DNA of 64,000 nucleotides from a virus (Duplodnaviria; Caudoviricetes): the IMG/VR virus record IMGVR_UViG_2574179795_000001, positions 23,063 through 87,062 of that record, one strand, 5' to 3'. The notes beneath the pieces are model-generated. The model did not search any database, was not told where the DNA came from, and saw only the letters and a list, made by a program, of their open reading frames with translations. How positions within the stretch are numbered: position 1 is the first letter of the stretch; each line of letters opens with the position of its first letter. Of the stretch, positions 12,638 to 38,856 are shown one piece after another. The translations under genes were made by a program, and so were the position numbers.

Positions 12638-13195
12638 TCAGTCCCTGCTGGTGATCTCGCGTGGGTCGCGGCCGAGGTCAGCGCCGTCGACCCAGGTCAC
12701 CTCGTAGCCGAGCCGGTCGGCGTAGTCCCGCGCGGCGGCGGCCTGCTGCTCCGGGCCGTCCTGGTCGATCGGTTCGGGGTTGCGGCGGCGGTACGAGACG
12801 CGCCGCGGGCTCTCGGCCGCACTGCCGGCAAGGGCGGCAGCCCACTCGGCCGTTACCTGCTCCCACGAGTCCGACTGGGGCCACCCCTCGACAAAGCCGA
12901 GTTGGCCGCCCGCCGCGCGCACCTTGCTCTTCCACGCCTGGTACTCGACGAGATGCCGGGAGACCCTGGCGGGTGCGACGGCGACGATCAGCCTGCCGTG
13001 GCAGCGTGCCACGACCCGCTCGAACGCGGAGCCGGCACGGCTGACGCCGATCTCCTCGACCCACTCGGTGATCTCGTGACCGGTCGCGGCCGCCCATTCT
13101 TCGATCCGGCGCTTCTGCAGCTCCCCGGCCCGGGTGTTCGGGTCGGGGGAGCCGACGCGGATGTAGCCGATCACGGGAGGCGGTGGGGTCGTCAT
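12638..13195 (-). CDS. Degenerate serine recombinase/resolvase catalytic-domain protein (185 aa)
   Basis: YIRVGS (YxRxS altered), LQ..RIEEWA...GHEI, ARVSR; second partial repeat SYRR...EQQ..ARDYADRLGYEV. Confidence 0.7.
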   Translation of the reverse strand: MTTPPPPVIGYIRVGSPDPNTRAGELQKRRIEEWAAATGHEITEWVEEIGVSRAGSAFERVVARCHGRLIVAVAPARVSRHLVEYQAWKSKVRAAGGQLGFVEGWPQSDSWEQVTAEWAAALAGSAAESPRRVSYRRRNPEPIDQDGPEQQAAAARDYADRLGYEVTWVDGADLGRDPREITSRD

Positions 13196-13340
13196 GGATT
13201 CACGGTAGCGGCCGGCGCCGTCAACGGAGCCCGAATCCCGGGGCGGCCCCGTAGCGGCCCGTTCCCGGCCTGGGAGTCCCGGAGTGCCAGCCGGGCCCGT
13301 GCGGGCGCCTACGGGGCGATGCGCGACGCCGCACGGGGCA

Positions 13341-13721
13341 TCAGGACCGGAGCAGCCCATGCGCATGCAGAGCCGCGCCGCCGAACTCCCTCGCGACGCC
13401 GTCGCAGAAGCAGCACCGCATATCGCACGCCAAGCCCCGCATCACCAGACCGCTGGGCAACGCCCGCAGGCAGTCACGGCACGCGTACGCACCCGCCGAA
13501 ACCCCCCAGTACATGCCGTCCCCCGGCGCGCCCTCCCTCGGCCCGCACGGGCAGTACCGCGGCGTCCCGTCCTGGTCGTTCCAGTGGACGCGCCACGCCG
13601 ACGGGGCATCGTACGGGCAGGCGCACACCTCGATCAGATGGTCGCCGCTCCAGCGGTCATACCAGGGCACGACCTTCGGGTTGGGGCAGTTCCGCAGGAC
13701 GACGATCGGCAGGTCGGGCAT
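13341..13721 (-). CDS. Cys-rich hypothetical protein (126 aa)
   Basis: GAGGAG SD; many Cys pairs. Confidence 0.55.
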   Translation of the reverse strand: MPDLPIVVLRNCPNPKVVPWYDRWSGDHLIEVCACPYDAPSAWRVHWNDQDGTPRYCPCGPREGAPGDGMYWGVSAGAYACRDCLRALPSGLVMRGLACDMRCCFCDGVAREFGGAALHAHGLLRS

Positions 13722-22817: not shown

Positions 22818-23270
22818 ATGACCACCTGCTCCAGCCTCAGCGCCACCGAGTTCGACTCGGTCGTCGCCACCGTCATCGACAACAACCCCGGCATGGCCAA
22901 CGAGGTCGCCGCCCGGATCGTGTCCGAGGGCGTCAAGTTCGTCATCGCCGGCGCCCGGTACCCGCAGCTGGCCCTCGCGCCGTCCCGGGTCGTCGACGAG
23001 GGCTGGCACGCCCTCATCCTCCACACCCAGCTGTACGCCCGCCTGTGCGCCGAGCACGGCCAGTTCGTCCACCACAGCCCCGGCTACGACCCGACGAACT
23101 ACGACCCGGCGATCCTCGGCCGGACGCAGGACAGCATCGGGCACGCCGGGTTCGCGGTCGACCGGGAGCTGTGGGCCGGGCCGTCCGACGACCGTGTTCC
23201 GGTCGCGGCGAAGTGCCAGCACGCGCCGACGTGCGCGATCCGGCCGATGCCGAAGCCCGAGTGGCCGTGA
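22818..23270 (+). CDS. Glycine-rich-domain-containing (DUF1399-like) protein
   Basis: PSRVVDEGWHALILHTQLYARLC...FVHHSP. Confidence 0.8.
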   Translation: MTTCSSLSATEFDSVVATVIDNNPGMANEVAARIVSEGVKFVIAGARYPQLALAPSRVVDEGWHALILHTQLYARLCAEHGQFVHHSPGYDPTNYDPAILGRTQDSIGHAGFAVDRELWAGPSDDRVPVAAKCQHAPTCAIRPMPKPEWP

Positions 23271-23526: not shown

Positions 23527-23823
23527 TCAGTCGACTTGCTCCTCACTCTTCTTGGGCCGCTTCGAGCCGCGGATGCCCTTGGAGATCTGCTGGGCTCGCG
23601 TGAAGTGGATCCCGAGGACATCGCCAATCTCCTGCCAGGTCTTTCCCTGGTCTCTCATGCGCTGGACACGGACCTGGCGGATCTCGCGTAGCCGGGCGTG
23701 GCTGTTGGGCCAGTCCTGCAGAACGTCAGTGATGGCCTTCGCGCAGGCGGCATCGTCAGTGATCTCCTCCAGCGCCTGAATGGCGTCCAAGAACCTCAAC
23801 ACCTCCTCGGGTTGATCTCCCAC
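23527..23823 (-). CDS. HTH regulator of the transfer module (98 aa)
   Basis: RVQRMRDQGKTWQEIGDVLGIHFTRAQQISKG; divergent from the tra operon. Confidence 0.8.
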   Translation of the reverse strand: MGDQPEEVLRFLDAIQALEEITDDAACAKAITDVLQDWPNSHARLREIRQVRVQRMRDQGKTWQEIGDVLGIHFTRAQQISKGIRGSKRPKKSEEQVD

Positions 23824-23865
23824 TTCGCCGCTCCCTTCCGTTGGGAAGCGTGACTCTTCACGAAT

Positions 23866-23910
23866 GTTAGACCCCCGCTCTTGCGTTCTTCTAGACCCGG
23901 GGTCTAACTT
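23866..23910. promoter_or_regulatory. Operator inverted repeat overlapping the rightward promoter
   Basis: GTTAGACCCC 23866-75 / GGGGTCTAAC 23899-908, plus TCTAGACCC; TTGCGT-N18-TAACTT. Confidence 0.7.
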
Positions 23911-24026
23911 GTTCAGTGTGAGGCCACGCACCTTGGTCTCAACAGCAAGATGCCCCGACCGGCGCTCGAACGCCATTGGCCGGGGCCAGCCCCACCCTCA
24001 CGCCGCTAAGCCACGAGGACAAGACC

Positions 24027-24266
24027 ATGAAGAAGAGTACCCAGAACACCCACGCCAGCGGCACCCCCGCGCCCGCCTCGACCAGCGGCGACGCCCTCGC
24101 CGCAGCCGCAGACCGTTTCGTCGCCTCGGCCGACGCGAGCTACGACGAGCGGACCGACCTGATCCAGAACCTCCGTGTCACGGCCGCGCAGCTCGCTAAG
24201 GCCGAGCAGCAGGTCCTCGACGCGCCCGGCCAGTACCGCGTCGCCGACGACGAGGCCGGCCGGTGA
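24027..24266 (+). CDS. Hypothetical protein (79 aa)
   Basis: GAGGA SD; first gene of tra operon. Confidence 0.65.
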   Translation: MKKSTQNTHASGTPAPASTSGDALAAAADRFVASADASYDERTDLIQNLRVTAAQLAKAEQQVLDAPGQYRVADDEAGR

Positions 24267-24466
24267 GCGCGGACCAGGCCCGGACGATGGGCCTCACCGC
24301 GCGTGAGATCGCCGAAGCCATCGCGACCGCGTCCACCGACGACCTCGGTCTCGGCGAGTCCGCACCGACCCGCCCGTACGGCGCACCCGACATCGGCACC
24401 GCGTGGCTCGACAACCGGCCGGCCGCGTGGAACGCGTTCGGCGAACCCCGAGAGGACCAGCAGTGA
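24263..24466 (+). CDS. Hypothetical protein (67 aa)
   Basis: GTGA coupling. Confidence 0.6.
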   Translation: MSADQARTMGLTAREIAEAIATASTDDLGLGESAPTRPYGAPDIGTAWLDNRPAAWNAFGEPREDQQ

Positions 24467-24573
24467 GCAGCCAGATCAACACCGGCTACGGCAACGGCAC
24501 CACCACGCTGGCCAACGGCAACACCACCCCGATCAAGCCGACCCCCGCACCGAAGCCGAGGAGCAGCAAGTGA
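24463..24573 (+). CDS. Peptide (36 aa) VSSQINTGYGNGTTTLANGNTTPIKPTPAPKPRSSK
   Basis: GTGA coupling at both ends, GAGGA SD. Confidence 0.5.
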   Translation: MSSQINTGYGNGTTTLANGNTTPIKPTPAPKPRSSK

Positions 24574-24857
24574 GCACCGACACCAAGCCCGTGGCCCAGT
24601 ACCTGACCGTCGGCGGCGCCACCGTCGAACTTCGGAGCCACCGCTTCAGTACCAACTACACCGGGCGGGGTCGTCTTGGCGACAGCTGGCACGAGGTGGA
24701 TGGCTTCACCTGGAAGTGCCTGGGCTGCGACACCCGCGGCGGCACCGGATTCCTGAGCCAGGAGCCGTACCTGCCTACCGAGCGGAAGCTGGCCAACAAC
24801 GACGCGAACAGCCACGCCGAGACGTGCCGCGCCATGCCGCTCGGGGGTGCGAAGTGA
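24570..24857 (+). CDS. Zn-binding hypothetical protein (95 aa)
   Basis: YLTVGGATV...CLGC...ANSHAETCRAMP. Confidence 0.7.
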   Translation: MSTDTKPVAQYLTVGGATVELRSHRFSTNYTGRGRLGDSWHEVDGFTWKCLGCDTRGGTGFLSQEPYLPTERKLANNDANSHAETCRAMPLGGAK

Positions 24858-25036
24858 GCACCCAGCATGAGCGGATCCAGGACACCGTCGTCCTGCTCGG
24901 CGCCACCGGCGTCACTGGCACGCCGGCCGAGATGAAGGCGTGGGCTGAGGAGGCCATGGCTGACCCGGAGACGTGGCGCCGCCTGAACGAGGACCTGCAC
25001 CGCGGCTACGGCGCCACCCTCGACGCCGCCGCCTGA
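24854..25036 (+). CDS. Hypothetical protein (60 aa)
   Basis: GTGA coupling. Confidence 0.6.
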   Translation: MSTQHERIQDTVVLLGATGVTGTPAEMKAWAEEAMADPETWRRLNEDLHRGYGATLDAAA

Positions 25037-25245
25037 ACCCTCCCCACGGCTGGGGTGTTGCGGATACACCCCAGCCAACCCATGTCATGCACACCACAAG
25101 GACCCTCGTGCCCGACCAACCCGACACCGACCAAACCCCCACCCCGCAACCCCCGCCCGACCTCAACCAACGCGCACGAGACACCGCCGAACGCGACTGG
25201 CGCGTCCACCCCCTCACCGAGAGCTGATCACCCGAAAGGCAACCA

Positions 25246-25497
25246 ATGAGCCACGAATACGACCCGTTCGAGGGCCGCCTCCTCCCCATCCACGAGATCC
25301 AGATCCGCAGCAGCGACGGAACACCCCACCACTGCAACCGCCCCATGGCCGACGACTTCGAGATGTTCCTGTGCGAGCCCTGCGGCAAGGTCGCCCGCCT
25401 CCGCGACATCCGAGCCGCCAGGGAGGGCCGCGGCTTCAGCAACCAGGGCTGGCAGACCAGCCACCACAATCTGCGTCCGCCGTTCGCCGGCAACTGA
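25246..25497 (+). CDS. Hypothetical Cys/His protein (83 aa)
   Basis: GAAAGG SD. Confidence 0.6.
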   Translation: MSHEYDPFEGRLLPIHEIQIRSSDGTPHHCNRPMADDFEMFLCEPCGKVARLRDIRAAREGRGFSNQGWQTSHHNLRPPFAGN

Positions 25498-25540
25498 CCG
25501 GCACACCGAGAGCCCTCCCGACCCCCTTCCAGGAGCCCCG

Positions 25541-25954
25541 ATGACCAGCCTCCTCAACCACCTCGCCGCCGGCATCCGCGGCCAGCACGCCTACCGCCAG
25601 ATCCGGGCCGAGCACGACGCCTGGGCCCGCGACGCGAAGCTCGGCACCACCTACTACACCCTCGCCGCCGACGCCCGCGGCGCCCACACCACCTACGTGT
25701 TCACCAAGATGGCCCGGTTCGGCCCGCACACCGGCCAGCTCATCGAAGCCGGCGGCGCCGCGTCCTGGACCCTCTGGTACCAGAACGGGCCGCTCACCAC
25801 CGCCCGCCAGACCACCCAGGCCGACCTCAACGCCATCGACCAGCGCGCCGAGAAGGCCGCCATGGCCCGCGCCCAGCAGACCGTCACCGACGCCGTCCTC
25901 GCCGAGATCGCAGTCCTCTACCCCGAGTCGGCCCGCGCCCTCCAGGCGGCCTGA
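25541..25954 (+). CDS. Hypothetical protein (137 aa)
   Basis: CAGGAG SD; strong C-ending codon bias. Confidence 0.75.
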   Translation: MTSLLNHLAAGIRGQHAYRQIRAEHDAWARDAKLGTTYYTLAADARGAHTTYVFTKMARFGPHTGQLIEAGGAASWTLWYQNGPLTTARQTTQADLNAIDQRAEKAAMARAQQTVTDAVLAEIAVLYPESARALQAA

Positions 25955-26018
25955 CGCGGGCTGGAGCTGGGACTACCGCACCGCACCCGAGAACTGACCA
26001 CCCATCCAGGAGCCCCGC

Positions 26019-26201
26019 ATGAGGAACTTCAGCTACCACGCCACCGTCCGCGACTTCCACGGGCGCATCCTCTACCAGCTCAGCAACCCCAACATCCCCG
26101 TCGCCAACGACCGAGCCACCGACGAACAGATCCGCGAAGAGATCAAGCGCATCCTCATCGACGGCCAGCAGTGGGAGATCAACCTCACCCGCGTCAGCTG
26201 A
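26019..26201 (+). CDS. Hypothetical protein (60 aa)
   Basis: CAGGAG SD. Confidence 0.65.
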   Translation: MRNFSYHATVRDFHGRILYQLSNPNIPVANDRATDEQIREEIKRILIDGQQWEINLTRVS

Positions 26202-26305
26202 AAGCCCCACCGGCCTGACCGCCGTACGGCGCCGCACAGCCCAGCACCTCTGTGCGGCAGCCGCAGGCACTCAGACCCCGACCGGCCATCCCGAAGGAGA
26301 CCGCC

Positions 26306-26569
26306 ATGCGCGCCGTCATCGCCCTCATCCTCCTCACCATCGCCTGGCCCGCCCTCACCGGCGTCGCCATCGGCACCAGCGCCTACCTCACCACCCACCT
26401 CGCCGCCACCCTCACCATCGCAGCCGCAGTACTCCTCGCCCGGCACAAGCCCCACCGCTCCCACCCCGTCATCACGTTCCTCATCGGCGCCAGCATCGCC
26501 ACCTGGATCACCGGCCACCACGGCCAGACCACCCAGGCCCCCGCGTCCGGCCCGCAGATCCCCGCCTAA
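26306..26569 (+). CDS. Small membrane protein, Spd/mobile-element-transfer-like (87 aa)
   Basis: Two to three hydrophobic segments; AAGGAG SD; directly upstream of the SpdB2-like gene. Confidence 0.7.
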   Translation: MRAVIALILLTIAWPALTGVAIGTSAYLTTHLAATLTIAAAVLLARHKPHRSHPVITFLIGASIATWITGHHGQTTQAPASGPQIPA

Positions 26570-26601
26570 CCCAACCCGCCACCGAAAGGCCAACCGCCGC
26601 C

Positions 26602-27606
26602 ATGACCAAGAACAACGACGGCACCGACAAGCTCACCCGCGGCGCCCTCATCCTCGTCATGGGCGCAGCACTCACCGTCGGCACCTGGTCCATCTACACC
26701 CTCCTCACCACCCACTTCCACGCCCCCCGAATCGTCGCCCTCTTCGGCGCTGGCATGTTCGACCTCGCCGCGTTCTTCTTCGCCCGCCTCGCCCAGCGCT
26801 ACGCCGCCAGCCCCGACTCCGGCCTCGTCCCCCGACTCGCCATGCTCGCCATGGTCACCGCCAGCTCCTGGGTCAACTGGACCCACGCCCACATGGAGCA
26901 CTGGGGCACCGTCGGCGCCGTCATCCTCGCCGCCGCCCCCGTCATCGCCGAACTCGCCTTCGAGATGTGGCACCGCTACGAACACCGCGAAGCGCTCCGC
27001 CGCCAAGGCCGCGTCGCCGAAGCCCTCCCCGTCATCCCCGGGCTCGCGTGGCTGCTGTTCGCCCCGACGTCGTGGCGCGTGATGCGCGCATCAGTCGGCT
27101 CGCGTCTCAGCGTCATCGAGGACGAAGCGATGCGCATCACCGCATCAGTCGGCGATGCGCATCGTGAAGCGCTCGACGCCGCACCCGCCCGCGCTGCCGT
27201 CGCATCAGTGGCGGACGATGCGCAGCACATCGTCATCACCCTGCAGCAGCCGCGCGCCATCACCGCCGCACCCGCTGATACGTACCGCCAGACGGCGAAT
27301 GATGCGCCCGGTGAAGCCGCACGTCAGCGCAGTGATGCGCCGCCACGCATCATCACCGTGCCGCAGCCGGCGACGGCTGATGCGGGCCCCGCAGAAGCCA
27401 CCGTATCGCTGGGCGAGGTGGACTTCGCTTCGCTCTCCAAGGCTGCCGCGATCAAGGCGATGCGTGATGCGTTGCCAGACGCGACGGCGCCGCAGATCTC
27501 TGATGCGCTCGCATCACACGGCATCACCGCTGATGCGGCGTACGTCCGCACGGTGCTGTCCCGTGCAGCGAAGACCCCGCCGCAGGGCACCGGCGGATAC
27601 CTGTAA
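26602..27606 (+). CDS. SpdB2/DUF2637-like membrane spread protein
   Basis: Four N-terminal TM helices, charged helical linker (HRYEHREALRRQGRV), low-complexity region, C-terminal helical domain; upstream of TraB. Confidence 0.75.
   Translation: MTKNNDGTDKLTRGALILVMGAALTVGTWSIYTLLTTHFHAPRIVALFGAGMFDLAAFFFARLAQRYAASPDSGLVPRLAMLAMVTASSWVNWTHAHMEHWGTVGAVILAAAPVIAELAFEMWHRYEHREALRRQGRVAEALPVIPGLAWLLFAPTSWRVMRASVGSRLSVIEDEAMRITASVGDAHREALDAAPARAAVASVADDAQHIVITLQQPRAITAAPADTYRQTANDAPGEAARQRSDAPPRIITVPQPATADAGPAEATVSLGEVDFASLSKAAAIKAMRDALPDATAPQISDALASHGITADAAYVRTVLSRAAKTPPQGTGGYL
27080..27537. repeat. Array of 18 GATGCG/CGCATC hexamers in both orientations
   Basis: GATGCG at 27081,27129,27154,27217,27301,27334,27379,27459,27466,27502,27532; CGCATC at 27087,27133,27141,27158,27201,27346,27510. 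Confidence 0.85.
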
Positions 27607-27656
27607 TCCCGGCGCGCCCGCCCTACTGACCTTCCCTCAGCAAGGAGACCCCTCTC

Positions 27657-29567
27657 ATGGCCCAGTACATCGGCTTCGCGCCGGCCCCGGCCGACCTGCC
27701 GGGCCCCCGTCCGACGATTTTGACGGTCTCGGCGACGACGACGGACAACCTGTCACCTACTGTGACAAATCAGGACAGTGATCGGAACTCTCCGCGCACG
27801 TCGCCATCGTCGTCACCGACCCGCCGCACCCGATTCCTCGCCTCCTGCGCCGCCGTCGCCCTCCGCGCCGCCACCTGGGTCCACACCTACCGCTACGAGA
27901 TGGCACCCGGCGCGGCCGTCAGCGTCCTCACGATGCTCGGCTGGTGGCAGCACACCACCCACGGAGCCGCCGACTGGGCGACCGGCTACACCGTGCTCGG
28001 CGCCGGCGCCGCACTCGCGGCCAGCCACGGCCTGAAGCACAAGCACGACCACCTGTACGGGACCGGCGCCGGCGTGGCAATCGCCCTCGGCGACGTCGCC
28101 GCCGCCACCGCCGCCGGGCCCGGCCCGGTGTCGTTCGTCGTCTTCTCGCTCGCCAGCGGGCTGGCGTACGTGGCGTACGTGCCGTGGCTCGCCGGGCACC
28201 GCAAGACCCACAGCAAGCCGACGGCACAGAAGGAGACCACGCAGCAGGCCGACATCGAGGACACAGTCGAGCCCGCCATAGAGGCAGCAGCGGAGTTCGA
28301 CGAGCTGGACGACAACATCTACGAGGAGCCCCAGCACAACCCGTTCGGCACCCCGGTCATCCCCTACGCGGACGACGAAAGCGACGACGTCCGTGCCCCG
28401 ATCCGCCTGGGCTGGGACGAGAACGGCCAGCGCGTCCCACTCACGCTCCTCTACCGGCACACCCTTGTCGCCGGCGCCTCAGACTTCGGGAAGTCCGGCC
28501 TCGTCAACCTGATCATCAAGAAGCTCCTCAAGAAGAAGGAGGAGCAGCGCGAACTGTTCGGCATCGACATGAAGCCCGGCTCCCCCGAACTCGGGCCCTG
28601 GGAGCCGAAGATGCGCAAGCTCGCCCGCACCCCCGAGGAGGCCCGCGACCTCCTTCAGCTCGTCCGGGCCGAGTGCGACCGCCGCGGAGCATTCCTCGCC
28701 GACCTGTCGGCCAGTTCGATGGCCTCCGGCCGCGGCCCGGTCCGCAAGTGGATCCCCGGCGTGCACGGACCCGCCTGGTGGATCATCACCGACGAGCTCG
28801 CCGAACTGATCCGCCAGGACGAGGAACTCCGCAAGCGGGAAGCCGAAGCCCGCAAGGTCAGCGAGGACCCGGAGCCAGCCGAGCAGGACATCGCCACGGC
28901 GTACGAGAGCCTCCTTGCGATCGCACGCTTCCTCGGCATCCAGTTCGTGTCCGCCACGCAGCAACCGTCCGCCAAAGTCTTCGGCGGCAACACCGACGCC
29001 CGCGGCAACTACGCGAACCGGATCTCTACCCGGGTCGGGGAGGCCGGTCACACGCCGTTCATCTTCGGCCGGGGCTGCACCGCGAAGGGCTGGAAGCCGG
29101 AGGACCTGCAGCGTCCTGGGGAGTTCTACATCGGCGCCCCGGAGCTGCCGCTTGTGGATCCGCCGAAGTGCCAGGCGGAGTACGTGACCGACGAGGACAT
29201 CGCGGCTGATGTCGGCCACTACTTCCAGGCCGGCCATCGCGGGCCGTCGGCGGGGCAGTCGGAGCCGCCAGTTCGGATGCTGAAGTCTGTGCCAGTCGCG
29301 CAGGCGGCGCCTGCCCAGCCGAAGCTGACGTTCCCAGACGGCTCCACGGTCGGCCGCAACGACTGGCCTGACCTGTACCGGGTGTTCTGCCGGCTGTGCG
29401 AGGAGCAGGGCTTCGCGACGAAGGACGACCTGGTGAAGGACGGGCCGTTCGATTCGCGGGACACCGTCCGCCGGGCGCTCGACGCATGGCTTGACCGAGG
29501 CGTCCTGGTCCGCAAGCAAGGACGCGCCGAGCAGTTCCACCTCCCCACCGCTGATTCCGATGACTGA
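27657..29567 (+). CDS. traB: FtsK/SpoIIIE-family conjugative DNA translocase TraB
   Basis: N-terminal TM helices; HTLVAGASDFGKS (Walker A), IDMKPG, IITDELAEL (Walker B), ARFLGIQFVSATQQPS; C-terminal wHTH. Confidence 0.88.
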   Translation: MAQYIGFAPAPADLPGPRPTILTVSATTTDNLSPTVTNQDSDRNSPRTSPSSSPTRRTRFLASCAAVALRAATWVHTYRYEMAPGAAVSVLTMLGWWQHTTHGAADWATGYTVLGAGAALAASHGLKHKHDHLYGTGAGVAIALGDVAAATAAGPGPVSFVVFSLASGLAYVAYVPWLAGHRKTHSKPTAQKETTQQADIEDTVEPAIEAAAEFDELDDNIYEEPQHNPFGTPVIPYADDESDDVRAPIRLGWDENGQRVPLTLLYRHTLVAGASDFGKSGLVNLIIKKLLKKKEEQRELFGIDMKPGSPELGPWEPKMRKLARTPEEARDLLQLVRAECDRRGAFLADLSASSMASGRGPVRKWIPGVHGPAWWIITDELAELIRQDEELRKREAEARKVSEDPEPAEQDIATAYESLLAIARFLGIQFVSATQQPSAKVFGGNTDARGNYANRISTRVGEAGHTPFIFGRGCTAKGWKPEDLQRPGEFYIGAPELPLVDPPKCQAEYVTDEDIAADVGHYFQAGHRGPSAGQSEPPVRMLKSVPVAQAAPAQPKLTFPDGSTVGRNDWPDLYRVFCRLCEEQGFATKDDLVKDGPFDSRDTVRRALDAWLDRGVLVRKQGRAEQFHLPTADSDD

Positions 29568-29580
29568 CCAGGAGACGACC

Positions 29581-30069
29581 ATGTACCAGGACCTGACGAC
29601 CACCGACACCGTCCAGCCGACCGCCGTCTACCCGGCGCAGCTCGCCCCCTATATCCCCGCCCCGCAGCCCGTGTTCATGCCCGCAGCAAGCCCCGCCATA
29701 CCGGGCGTCGTCATCAACCCGGACGGCAGCGTGCACTACGGGCACCCGCCGATCATCTACGCCCAGCAGCAGCCGCAGCTGACCGTCGACCCGCGGGCCA
29801 GTCTCATGGCCGGGTACGGCGTGGCGGCGGCCGGGGTCGGCTTCGGCGCGTCGGAGCTGATCGGTGCCGTCGCCGGCGCGAGCGTCGGCACTCTCATCGC
29901 CACTGCGGCGGTCATCGCCGTCGCCAAGTTCAAGGCTCCGCGGGTGTCTACGGTCAACCACATCCGGGAGGAGTACCACCAGCACGTCACCACCATGGCG
30001 ACCGGATGGTTCGGCCGCGCCAACGGCGAGATCCGCAACGAGAAGACGTTCAACAGCGGCCAAGCCTGA
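29581..30069 (+). CDS. SpdD-like membrane protein (162 aa)
   Basis: Pro-rich N-terminus, Gly/Ala TM hairpin; directly after traB; CAGGAG SD. Confidence 0.65.
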   Translation: MYQDLTTTDTVQPTAVYPAQLAPYIPAPQPVFMPAASPAIPGVVINPDGSVHYGHPPIIYAQQQPQLTVDPRASLMAGYGVAAAGVGFGASELIGAVAGASVGTLIATAAVIAVAKFKAPRVSTVNHIREEYHQHVTTMATGWFGRANGEIRNEKTFNSGQA

Positions 30070-30128
30070 ACTGCCCACGTCCAGCGGCGCGGTGCACCAG
30101 AATGGTCCCGACACTTTGGGGGCATCCT

Positions 30129-30734
30129 GTGGCACCGCGCCGACGTCGTAGCACCACCAGCTCGGGCCCGCTCCTGGCGATCGCCGTCGTGCTGATCGTC
30201 CTGGTGGGGATCTTCCGTGCGATAGCCGCACACCCGGTTGTCTTCGTCCTGCTGCTGCTCGCGGCCGGCGCCATCCTGGTCGCGGTGATGGTTCGGCGCA
30301 CCAAGCGGCACCAGGCGCAGCAGCAGATCCGGGCAGCCCGGTCGTTCGAGATCGCCCCGTATCACCGCATGTCGGCGCTGGAGTTCGAGCACGCCCTCGC
30401 GTTCCTGTGTCAGCGGGACGGCTGCCGGGACGTGCAGGTAGTAGGCGGCGCCGGCGACCTCGCCGCAGACGTCATCGCCACCACCCCCGACGGGCGCCGC
30501 ATCGTCATACAGGCCAAGCGGTACGGCCCGACCACCACCGTCGGCTCCGGAGACGTGCAGAAGGTCAACGGCACATACCGGGATTTCCACGGCGGACACT
30601 TGGCGGCGATCGTCACCACCTCGCGGTTCACGAAGCCCGCGCTCACCGCCGCCGACAAGGTCGGCATCCGCTGCTACGACCAGCACGACCTCGCTGGCTG
30701 GGCCAGCCGAACCGGACCAGCGCCCTGGCACTGA
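30129..30734 (+). CDS. Membrane-anchored Mrr-family (Mrr_cat) restriction endonuclease
   Basis: Two TM helices, then MSALEFEHALA...GGAGDLAADV...IVIQAKRY...VGSGDVQ...IVTTSRFT. Confidence 0.9.
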   Translation: MAPRRRRSTTSSGPLLAIAVVLIVLVGIFRAIAAHPVVFVLLLLAAGAILVAVMVRRTKRHQAQQQIRAARSFEIAPYHRMSALEFEHALAFLCQRDGCRDVQVVGGAGDLAADVIATTPDGRRIVIQAKRYGPTTTVGSGDVQKVNGTYRDFHGGHLAAIVTTSRFTKPALTAADKVGIRCYDQHDLAGWASRTGPAPWH

Positions 30735-30747
30735 CAGGATGGACACC

Positions 30748-30867
30748 ATGATTCGCATCCTCCGCTCGTGGATCAAGGCGCCCGGTTTTGCCGAGGCGTT
30801 CGGCCTGAGCGTGTTCGCCGCCCTGATCATCATCGCCCTCAACCTCACGCTACGGTCTCTGTCGTGA
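30748..30867 (+). CDS. Single-TM microprotein (39 aa, not in ORF track)
   Basis: MIRILRSWIKAPGFAEAFGLSVFAALIIIALNLTLRSLS; GGA SD. Confidence 0.55.
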   Translation: MIRILRSWIKAPGFAEAFGLSVFAALIIIALNLTLRSLS

Positions 30868-32512: not shown

Positions 32513-32893
32513 GTGACCATGCCAACGCTGCCCAACCAGCTCAACACCACCTCGGCGGCCGGAAGTCAGTGGGCCACCACCTACACCCTGCAGAACGACG
32601 ACGGCACGCTGATGAACATCGTCGGCAAGAGCTTCGAGTTCGTCGTCCGGCCATCGACGACCGACGTCGCCGAGCCGGCCCTCGTCGCCGTCAACTCCAC
32701 CACCGCCACAGCGCAGGGCTACATCACCGTCACCCCGTCCACGTCCACCGTGCAGGTCGTCCTCTCCCCCACCGCGACCGCACTCCTCGGCCAGTCCGCC
32801 TACCCGTACTCGCTGTGGATGGACCCCGGCCTCACAGACGCGACCGACCTCGTCGTGGGCACGTTCTTCTCCAGCCTCGTCGCCGCAGCCTAG
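32513..32893 (+). CDS. BppU-like beta-sandwich virion adaptor protein
   Basis: W..TYTLQNDDGTLMNIVG..FEFVVRP...VVLSPTATALL...Y.LW pattern; precedes the fibre gene. Confidence 0.6.
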   Translation: MTMPTLPNQLNTTSAAGSQWATTYTLQNDDGTLMNIVGKSFEFVVRPSTTDVAEPALVAVNSTTATAQGYITVTPSTSTVQVVLSPTATALLGQSAYPYSLWMDPGLTDATDLVVGTFFSSLVAAA

Positions 32894-37461: not shown

Positions 37462-38856
37462 GTGACCGCCACCCAGGACTGGCTTGAGTACGCAGCCAAG
37501 GACTTCGAGGTTGCCCGGCCCCCGCAGTGGCGGAAGATCGCCCGCCCCGAACAGCTCGCCCCGGACGGTATCTGGCTCACCTGGGCCTACGTCGCAGGAC
37601 GCGGCGCCGGCAAGACCCGCTCCGCCGCCGAGTGGGTCCACGAGAAAGCCATGCTCAACCCGGGCGTACGCATCGCCCTCGTCGGCCGCACCCCCGCCGA
37701 CGTCCGCGACGTCATGATCGAAGGCGAATCGGGAATCATCGCCATCGCGCACGGCGACGCCCCCAACTACCAGTCCACGAAGCGTCGGCTGACCTGGCCC
37801 AACGGCTCCACCGCCCACACCTACTCCGCCGAGGTCCCCTCACAACTCCGCGGCCCGCAGCACCACTTCGCCTGGTGCGACGAACCTGCGGCCTGGACCG
37901 ACGCCCCCAAGGGCGACGCCCTGGACACCGCCTGGAACAACCTCGTCCTCGGGCTACGGCTCGGCCAGTCGCCGCAGTGCGTGTTCACGACCACCCCGAA
38001 GCCCAACGCCCTGATCCGCACCATCCTCGGACGCCGCTCCACGGTCGTCACCCGCGGCTCGACCTACGACAACCTCGGGAACCTCGCACCGAGCTTCCGC
38101 GAGGAAGTCCTTGCCACCTACGAGGGCACCCGCATCGGCCGCCAAGAACTCCTCGGGGAACTCCTCGACGACGTCGAAGGCGCCCTTTGGACCATCGGCC
38201 TCCTCGACGAAGACCGCGTCACGGCGCCACCGGACATGCGGCGCATCGTCGTCGCCATCGACCCCTCGGGCGGCTCCGGCCCCAACAACGACGAACAGGG
38301 CATCATCGTCGCCGGCCTCGGCATCGACGGCGCCCTGTACGTCCTCGCCGACCGATCCTGCTCCCTATCACCCCACGGCTGGGCATCACGAGCTGTCGGC
38401 GCCTACCGCGAGTTCAACGCGGACCGGATCATCGCCGAGAAGAACTACGGCGGCGACATGGTCGAATCGACGATCCGCCAGGTCGACACCAACGTCCCCG
38501 TCAAGGTCATCACCGCGTCCCGCGGCAAAGTCCAACGCGCCGAACCCGTCGCCGCCCTCTACGAGCAGCACCGCGTCCACCACGTCGGCGCCATGCCCAA
38601 GCTCGAAGACCAGATGACGACCTGGACACCACAGGACGGCACCAGTCCCGACCGGCTCGACGCTCTCGTCTGGGCGGTGACCGAACTGACCGACAACTTC
38701 CAAGCCCAGGCATGGATCGAGTACATGCGCCGCCACGCCGAAGCCCAGCAGGTGACACCTGTGGAGCCTCAAGAGCAAACCGAGCCTGCGGTCGAAGACC
38801 CCGCCACCGTCCAGCAGCGAGCCCGAGACGCCGCCTTCCGAGCTGCACGCCGATAA
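37462..38856 (+). CDS. terL: Terminase large subunit
   Basis: AGRGAGKT (Walker A), LRGPQHHFAWCDE (Walker B), VAIDPS and SPDRLDALVWA nuclease motifs. Confidence 0.95.
   Translation: MTATQDWLEYAAKDFEVARPPQWRKIARPEQLAPDGIWLTWAYVAGRGAGKTRSAAEWVHEKAMLNPGVRIALVGRTPADVRDVMIEGESGIIAIAHGDAPNYQSTKRRLTWPNGSTAHTYSAEVPSQLRGPQHHFAWCDEPAAWTDAPKGDALDTAWNNLVLGLRLGQSPQCVFTTTPKPNALIRTILGRRSTVVTRGSTYDNLGNLAPSFREEVLATYEGTRIGRQELLGELLDDVEGALWTIGLLDEDRVTAPPDMRRIVVAIDPSGGSGPNNDEQGIIVAGLGIDGALYVLADRSCSLSPHGWASRAVGAYREFNADRIIAEKNYGGDMVESTIRQVDTNVPVKVITASRGKVQRAEPVAALYEQHRVHHVGAMPKLEDQMTTWTPQDGTSPDRLDALVWAVTELTDNFQAQAWIEYMRRHAEAQQVTPVEPQEQTEPAVEDPATVQQRARDAAFRAARR

Follow-up and report, generated by a model that had tools for sequence, protein, structure and literature searches.

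Why should a temperate tailed phage carry genes of the kind that Streptomyces plasmids use to spread through mycelia? The question is raised by a 64,000-nucleotide stretch of the virus record IMGVR_UViG_2574179795_000001 (positions 23,063 to 87,062 of that record; hereafter the window, whose numbering is used unless a contig is named), which corresponds to C4:1139161-1203160 of an 8.68-Mb Kitasatospora genome with a GC content of 72%. A preliminary description, made from the sequence alone, had seen in positions 23527-30867 a complete-looking TraB/Spd conjugation module inside a phage. The present analysis, with GC3-guided calling of open reading frames (ORFs) and family scans against Pfam, NCBIfam, PHROG and PADLOC (Table 1), gives good confidence in an integral, phage-borne DNA translocation module of the TraB/SpdB2 type, and by a small balance of probability it suggests that the module moves phage DNA between compartments or mycelia independently of virions. 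The central components are an FtsK-family ATPase, a DUF2637/SpdB2-like membrane protein encoded just upstream of it, and a dense array of short repeats within the gene for the latter.

The ATPase had been described as FtsK-type, with intact Walker motifs and a winged helix-turn-helix (wHTH) domain, and these elements were all recovered. Walker A (G273-G281, GASDFGKSG) and Walker B (D379-E380, DE) are invariant in an alignment of 19 homologues. An AlphaFold2 model predicts a five-helix hydrophobic N-terminal bundle (residues 56-185; predicted local distance difference test score, pLDDT, 70-83), with which hydropathy agrees, one RecA-like motor domain (249-530) and a C-terminal wHTH (571-628, pLDDT 84-92; helices 571-584, 589-595 and 601-612 and a two-strand wing). 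When this model was searched with Foldseek, the top match was the FtsK motor on double-stranded DNA (6t8g, E 5.6e-9), with EccC and TcpA, a conjugative coupling protein, next. The protein is nevertheless distinct from chromosomal FtsK and from EccC of the type VII secretion system, as the preliminary description had supposed: against PF01580 it scores 29 bits, versus 224 for the chromosomal FtsK of the same genome (223.8, a 989-amino-acid (aa) ORF) and 148 and 142 for its EccC proteins, the latter being 1359-1373 aa long with several FtsK-like domains, versus 636 aa and a single motor in the phage protein. Two AICE-type Tra proteins encoded beside integrases in this genome, one of them also beside a DUF2637 gene, score similarly, at 33-37 bits. 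In BLASTP the ATPase is 26-27% identical to both the chromosomal FtsK and the Tra protein of an actinomycete integrative and conjugative element (AICE), and 27% identical to FtsK over the motor. We therefore call it TraB-like on the basis of its predicted architecture and its context, not of sequence similarity.

The upstream partner had been described as a four-transmembrane (TM) SpdB2/DUF2637-like protein, which held: it matches PF10935 with 31.7 bits (cut-off 22.8), and its AlphaFold2 model has four long TM helices, a disordered linker (approximately residues 187-269) and a C-terminal three-helix, HTH-like domain (280-324). Foldseek returned nothing significant for this model. The homologue P0177 has an HTH_17/MerR_1 domain at the same C-terminal position, and the tail of the homologue at locus L068 gave several HTH matches, all below threshold. 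The equivalence of DUF2637 with SpdB2 rests on phiC31 gp25, which matches the DUF2637 hidden Markov model (HMM) built here at 1e-5, not the Pfam DUF2637 model, and we accordingly use the term SpdB2-like. Relatives of the window DUF2637 protein are encoded in 91 Streptomyces phage records.

The linker and tail of this protein are encoded by DNA that carries the repeat array. Of the 85 copies of GATGCG in the window, 18 fall within 457 bp, where approximately 0.5 would be expected from the window background and 0.24 from the genome-wide density of 0.53 per kb; this is the sole cluster of at least 6 copies per 500 bp in the 8.68-Mb genome. The YGATGCG copies occur on both strands and in several reading frames, and some of them form palindromes. 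Aspartate codons in the array stretch are GAT rather than GAC in a ratio of 9:5, versus 23:201 in the other phage genes. A by-product of a peptide repeat was considered as an explanation and rejected for the window, given both strands, several frames and rare GAT codons. By these compositional measures the array is under selection at the DNA level, and it is a candidate cis-acting recognition site similar to the clt locus of conjugative plasmids.

Comparable arrays were found among the relatives of the module. In a k-mer clustering scan, the top clustered 6- or 7-mer lay in the 3′ half of the gene upstream of the ATPase in 8 of 9 genome neighbourhoods (not in G229), and among IMG/VR loci with upstream DNA the cluster was likewise present in most, being weak in L069 and L077 and absent from L080. 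The motif itself differs: at least 8 different array motifs were identified among relatives, each a 6-8-bp motif in 11-53 copies (Table 1). Members of the YGATGCG class share 69-75% identity over the region and have 11-18 copies each, of which mostly only about half (4-11 per pair) are at homologous positions; the copy number is maintained while single copies turn over. The densest array, with 53 copies of CGGACC/CGGWCCG (an RsrII-type palindrome) in approximately 0.5 kb, was observed at L076:8885-9400. The linker encoded there contains TDR-type repeats, so that DNA-level and peptide-level repetition are entangled at this locus.

Which protein, then, tracks the motif? The wHTH of the ATPase (S[RL]DTVRRA...) is nearly invariant across motif classes, zero alignment columns of the ATPase separate motif class A from class B, and different motifs occur beside ATPases that share 87-91% identity; that this wHTH co-varies with the motif was accordingly rejected. 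By contrast, over the 70 C-terminal residues of the DUF2637 protein, identity is 72% in same-motif pairs (minimum 40%) versus 13% in different-motif pairs. At loci L076 and L078 the two flanks, which take in the TM domain and the ATPase, share 86-88% identity, and the approximately 780 bp between them, which comprise the array and the tail, are unrelated. Between the window and the closest relative, G318, similarity is lost exactly between 26607 and 27653, that is, the whole DUF2637 gene is swapped. Judging from such alignments, array and tail are exchanged as a cassette between conserved flanks, and the two sets of boundaries favour a functional cassette over mere linkage. We tentatively suggest, as a possibility to which we give somewhat less than even weight, that SpdB2-like DUF2637 proteins are membrane-anchored receptors for specific DNA sequences, that the SpdB2-like tail is a sequence-specific reader of the array and that in this phage lineage the clt function has moved from the pump to its DUF2637 partner.

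Strong homologues of the ATPase were detected in 6 of 134 sampled genomes of the genus, with weak or partial matches in 2 further genomes. A Pfam DUF2637 gene lies directly upstream of the ATPase gene in 8 of 9 Streptomycetaceae genome relatives (six Kitasatospora prophages, G092 and the window); the protein encoded at this position in G098 has no Pfam match. In G318, G129 and G374 the ATPase gene lies between the DnaB module and homologues of the head and tail genes of the window phage, and in G372, G320 and G140 the DnaB side is kept, with weaker tail-gene matches also in G372 and G320. A scan of IMG/VR recovered 19 viral contigs (8-135 kb) with ATPases 50-57% identical to that of the window; the ATPase matched 19 of 19, every other window protein at most 4. 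One of these contigs is a 100%-complete genome of 91,887 bp bounded by direct terminal repeats (DTRs), which has a ParA-like gene and no serine recombinase. In the databases, approximately 30 homologues of one or other member of the pair, a count in which some contigs were perhaps seen twice via both proteins, are on 85-100-kb contigs of Streptomyces and Kitasatospora drafts; this suggests that a family of phage-sized elements which assemble separately, in some cases with ParA (G401, G403), is widespread. To call the module complete-looking was an overstatement: across relatives only the DUF2637-ATPase pair and a 137-aa protein are kept, and the Mrr-type nuclease, the TM protein after the ATPase, the small TM protein and the HTH regulator are each found in at most one relative.

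The element that carries the module has a single pair of ends. An intact 643-aa gene of G318 aligns to the host genome in two pieces around the prophage (residues 15-511 to C4:1208683-1207193 and residues 501-636 to C4:1114500-1114072), from which we recognise one 92.7-kb insertion (C4 approximately 1114501-1207192) that splits the host gene. The window lies in this island of approximately 69% GC, and GC is uniform across it. Besides the terminal large serine recombinase, no second tyrosine or large serine integrase was found within the insertion. Downstream of the module are genes for TerL (37462-38856), an XkdF-type protease, a tape measure protein bearing an SLT domain and Dit, and upstream, on the minus strand, those for DnaB, an HTH_36 protein, an N6 methylase and Thg1; the phage setting assigned to the module in the preliminary description was therefore sound. 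The element is a temperate siphovirus-type prophage (tape-measure and Dit tail genes) with a serine integrase. In G318, an integrated copy (C2, 804153-860091) has the same 54-kb distance between integrase and ATPase as the window, and a separate free contig of 93,235 bp (C4) has the same integrase and ATPase. G318 contains three identical copies of the ATPase gene, the third at C1:8485185-8487143, 28 kb from the end of the chromosome contig; the three copies point to an active element or to shared replicon ends.

These observations bear on an alternative that the preliminary description had itself raised, namely that the module is a separate AICE or integrated plasmid with its own ends, nested in or beside the prophage. 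TraB-like and SpdB2-like genes are the hallmark of AICEs, and a small protein with a resolvase domain is encoded at 12638-13366. Against this, the insertion holds no inner tyrosine or large serine integrase, a Rep gene was not seen within the module or next to it, the host gene is split at a single pair of ends, GC is uniform, and the same placement recurs in related phages and IMG/VR contigs, including the complete genome. The nested AICE was rejected because, in addition, window and G318 DNA remain collinear as far as the borders of the DUF2637 gene on either side; we regard this alternative as very improbable, and the module as integral to the phage.

Among the closest known counterparts is the TraB-clt-Spd system of Streptomyces plasmids and AICEs, such as pSVH1 and pIJ101 (Thoma et al. 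2015, PMC4447253). There, TraB and a clt with 8-bp TraB recognition sequence (TRS) repeats are enough for transfer (PMC4447253, PMC4170104), and spreading requires SpdB2, a pore-forming four-TM protein with non-specific DNA binding that interacts with TraB (PMC4447253, PMC4170104). Both systems are found on mobile elements of mycelial actinomycetes; in each, a membrane-associated FtsK-like ATPase combines one motor with a C-terminal wHTH, a four-TM SpdB2-type gene lies directly upstream, repeats adjoin the pump and a regulator is divergent. Unlike the plasmid systems, the window module is on a 93-kb tailed phage, its regulator is not of the GntR type, and its array, with copies in both orientations, is upstream of the pump within the SpdB2-like gene and tracks the tail, not the wHTH. 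SpdA2 of pIJ101, which binds a palindrome within its own gene (sps) and affects stability (PMC4170104), offers a parallel to the candidate array-binding tail, as a DNA-binding protein of the Spd class with a specific site inside its own coding sequence. It differs in being small and soluble, in recognising a 12-bp palindrome that is conserved across plasmids and present once to three times, and in acting in stability, not transfer, whereas the protein of the window lineage is membrane-anchored, with 11-53 copies of a 6-8-bp motif that is hypervariable between elements. FtsK-KOPS and SpoIIIE-SRS share with the module the best structural match of the motor, a gamma-like wHTH and short recognition motifs; the window motifs, however, form one unpolarised 0.5-kb array and are not genome-wide and skewed, and the PF01580 match is weak.

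Phage-borne genes of the transfer or Spd type have precedents. Conjugating plasmid-phages are a recognised category, and transfer of pZL12 is reported to require tra and two neighbouring genes (PMC3583192, PMC4170104). The preliminary description had cited pZL12 (GQ919031; Zhong et al. 2010, cited in PMC3583192 and PMC4487206) as a precedent, which is apt at the level of function: it is a tailed Streptomyces phage of approximately 90 kb, with an FtsK-like tra gene and neighbours just upstream of its packaging and head genes. Unlike the window phage, which is integrated by a serine integrase, it is a ParAB plasmid. No relation by sequence was found at the thresholds used, as the tra-locus proteins of pZL12 have no similarity to the window (tblastn, 1e-4) and no DUF2637 match (HMM), and the locus has no dense array (k-mer scan). 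The 7 protein matches between the two phages are weak or partial (e.g., SSB and part of TerL) and none is in the tra locus; kinship was therefore rejected. SpdB2 homologues of phages phiC31 (gp25) and VWB were proposed to aid the spread of phage DNA (PMC4447253). These are likewise membrane proteins of temperate Streptomyces phages akin to plasmid spread proteins; unlike the window protein, gp25 of phiC31 has no FtsK-like partner and no array nearby. The closest annotated relatives of the ATPase, with 30-40% identity over the motor, are gp10 of phage Gilgamesh ("FtsK-like DNA translocase"), which was the only match in the phage collection, and proteins of five Streptomyces plasmids of approximately 130 kb, which were the only tblastn matches in PLSDB. 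A membrane protein follows gp10 in Gilgamesh, and neither an adjoining DUF2637 gene nor an array was found in the stretches of Gilgamesh and of these plasmids that were examined. In the literature that was searched on DUF2637, on TraB/Spd in prophages and on conjugative phage-plasmids of Streptomyces, we found no account of this lineage or of the pairing of array and tail; what is new here is the hypervariable array paired with an SpdB2-like tail.

Arrays in DUF2637 genes are also observed beyond this lineage. In the same genome, a second DUF2637 gene (L061, C5:2047135-2048844; 569 aa) has 33 copies of CGGTCA in approximately 500 bp of its 3′ half; an IstB-like ATPase is encoded upstream of it and a MobA/VirD2 relaxase downstream, with no FtsK-like neighbour. 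Gene 31 of the lytic 132-kb phage BlueOtter (L006:5944-6813) encodes a DUF2637 protein and has an array in its 3′ half (GTGACA, 13 copies; GGACAA, 10 copies), also without an FtsK-like neighbour. Because of these two cases, the unit of tail and array can exist without a pump. Another array, 12 copies of TGACGCA at C5:2254413-2255186, lies approximately 4 kb downstream of the tra gene of an AICE-like element (tyrosine integrase, 2253070; Tra, 2258852-2261155; DUF2637, 2263679), and may represent the clt or the iterons of that element.

Taken as a transfer system, the module could act as follows. The phage genome would be excised or replicating first; the tail of the DUF2637 membrane protein would then bind the array, marking the phage's own DNA and holding it at the membrane or septal cross-wall, and a hexameric ATPase would pump the double-stranded genome into the adjoining hyphal compartment, possibly into a contacting mycelium. 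The outcome would be spread without virions, as in the spreading and conjugation of Streptomyces plasmids. Several points weigh against this account. Transfer by the window element or its relatives, like tail binding and pumping, is what we infer, and an integrated prophage must excise before its DNA can be pumped. The ATPase has no BLAST-level similarity to plasmid TraB proteins in PLSDB beyond the five plasmids mentioned above, no NCBIfam match and no PDB sequence match (E 0.01). No clustered or shared 8-mers were found at the 3′ end of the ATPase gene, and a classical clt at that site was rejected. Since the wHTH hardly varies between motif classes, the array is probably not read as TraB of pSVH1 reads its TRS. 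The co-variation of tail and array is confounded by physical adjacency, and linkage could explain it because the tail is encoded beside the array. Finally, the array-tail unit may serve another purpose, e.g., tethering or stability, because DUF2637 genes with arrays occur without an FtsK-like neighbour.

Stability leads to the rival of maintenance or segregation, in which tail and array would act as a centromere and the pump would clear or distribute phage genomes across cross-walls and sporulation septa, so that a free or plasmid form is kept in each compartment and spore and is not moved to new hosts. Consistent with this, it is segregational stability that SpdA2/sps affects, not transfer, and SLP2 becomes less stable when spdB2 is mutated (PMC4170104); the swappable specificity cassettes recall the way in which partition sites diversify under incompatibility; DTR ends and a ParA-type gene, together with the lack of a serine recombinase, liken some relatives to plasmids; many homologues are on 85-99-kb contigs; and a lytic phage has DUF2637 and array without the ATPase. 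However, the window copy and several relatives are integrated with no ParA nearby and still keep the module, and the plasmid-type relatives already possess ParA. This rival overlaps with the transfer account, as stability and spreading are hard to tell apart in mycelia (PMC4170104), and we consider it unlikely, while giving it appreciable weight. The arrays of strictly lytic 130-kb Streptomyces phages bear equally on a role in the lytic cycle, in membrane anchoring of replicating phage DNA or genome processing before packaging, for which the position of the module just upstream of packaging genes also speaks, the tra locus of pZL12 being placed alike. A complete terminase is present, however, the solved folds nearest to the motor are FtsK, then EccC and TcpA, and membrane anchoring of both proteins suits transport across a membrane; a lytic role is accordingly improbable.

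A defence or superinfection-exclusion moron, in which the ATPase and the membrane Mrr would expel or destroy incoming foreign or modified DNA and protect the lysogen, seems to us just as doubtful as a lytic role. Its basis is the position of the module among early or accessory prophage genes and the PADLOC scan, in which the ATPase weakly matches mad8 (1.1e-6) and SspH, and the nuclease weakly matches type IV restriction endonuclease models. The ATPase matches span the generic P-loop motor alone, and assignment to a defence system was rejected as the matches are weak and generic. Moreover, Mrr and the adjacent TM protein are common to one relative only, the ATPase is unlike a moron in its presence on all 19 IMG/VR contigs versus at most 4 for the other window proteins, and it is the phage's own DNA that carries the dense cis array. 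Virion-independent movement of phage DNA is thus the account that we favour, by the small balance given above.

If that account is true, a widespread family of approximately 90-kb Streptomycetaceae phages gains a second, receptor-independent route through mycelia, large temperate phages could pass from hypha to hypha without virions, and views of phage spread, host range and defence in filamentous bacteria would change. The co-varying HTH tail and array also offer a handle on the role of Spd proteins in Streptomyces conjugation: they predict sequence-specific docking of DNA, for which the natural cassette swaps are ready-made specificity variants. Tail and array together could represent a hitherto undescribed module with which actinobacterial mobile elements in general tether their own DNA.

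Table 1. Features of the module, ends of the prophage and array motifs of the relatives (WIN, window; G and L numbers, genomes and loci compared; positions refer to the window unless a contig is named).
Feature	Location	Strand	Evidence or remarks
Small HTH protein	23527-23976 as listed	-	Divergent; Pfam HTH_23 E 0.0029, below cut-off
Inverted repeat GTTAGACCCC...GGGGTCTAAC	23866-23908	.	16-nt arms, 88% complementary; 10-nt perfect core
137-aa protein	25541-25954	+	Sole upstream operon member kept in most related phages
Small 2-TM membrane protein	26306-26569	+	Hydropathy; found only in G318 (60%)
DUF2637/SpdB2-like protein	26602-27606	+	Pfam PF10935 1.8e-7; phrog_10376 7e-41
YGATGCG array, 18 copies (11 +, 7 -)	27081-27537	.	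In DUF2637 coding sequence, linker and tail
TraB-like FtsK-family ATPase, 636 aa	27657-29567	+	Pfam PF01580 3.5e-6, above cut-off
169-aa protein, one Gly/Ala-rich TM segment	29560-30069	+	Hydropathy; overlaps ATPase stop by 8 nt
Two-TM Mrr-type nuclease (type IV restriction-like)	30102-30734	+	Pfam Mrr_cat PF04471 6e-21; PADLOC mREase_IV 3e-6
Left prophage end	C4:1114012-1116081		~146-aa 3′ part of split host gene; 519-aa large serine recombinase
Right prophage end	C4:1207124-1208803		559-aa 5′ part of split host gene (~640 aa)
Array motif YGATGCG	WIN, G320, G140, L065
Array motif GGCGC(C/T)	G318, G372, G092, L063, L064
Array motif CCGAAGC	G129, L073
Array motif TGAGCGC	G374
Array motif GGAGCGC	L078
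Array motif TGTTCGC	L070-72, L081
Array motif TGAGCCG	L068
Array motif CGGWCCG	L076		53 copies
Array motif TCCGGAC	L074
Array motif CGGAAC	G098

The remaining plus-strand genes of the module form, with the DUF2637-ATPase pair, a tight run of ORFs up to 30734. The divergent small HTH gene at its start was not found in relatives. Its likely true start is a GTG at 23823, preceded by GGAAGGGAG, which resembles a ribosome-binding site; this start gives a protein of approximately 98 aa and leaves a divergent intergenic region of approximately 200 bp, in which the inverted repeat is inferred to be a candidate operator. The regulator and operator of the preliminary description can thus be retained, the former on a weak HTH_23 match. 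The 137-aa protein has no match in Pfam, NCBIfam, PHROG or PADLOC; in tblastn it is 36-45% identical to counterparts in G318, G372, G140, G129 and G374 and 34-40% in L063-L065. Downstream of it, the small TM protein is present as described, with two TM segments. The 169-aa protein with one TM segment had been labelled SpdD-like, a label that is unsupported because the protein is without a family match (none above threshold in the Pfam and NCBIfam scans); it is accessory, being common only to G318 (57%). The Mrr-type nuclease, also accessory and common only to G318 (48%), has the TM segments and the Mrr domain that had been ascribed to it.

Other parts of the prophage gave further observations. 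The resolvase-domain protein at 12638-13366 (242 aa, minus strand; N-terminal domain, 4.6e-8) belongs to the replication module and may act as a small serine recombinase that resolves multimers or inverts DNA. In the segment 32513-38856, three proteins, one fibre-like and of 1253 aa, one of 126 aa that precedes it (32513-32893) and one of 256 aa that follows it, are missing from G318, G129 and G374 and are common to G092, which belongs to another genus, at 51-61% identity. The window TerL has no match in any of these relatives. The segment 32513-38856 is a mosaic packaging-side module.

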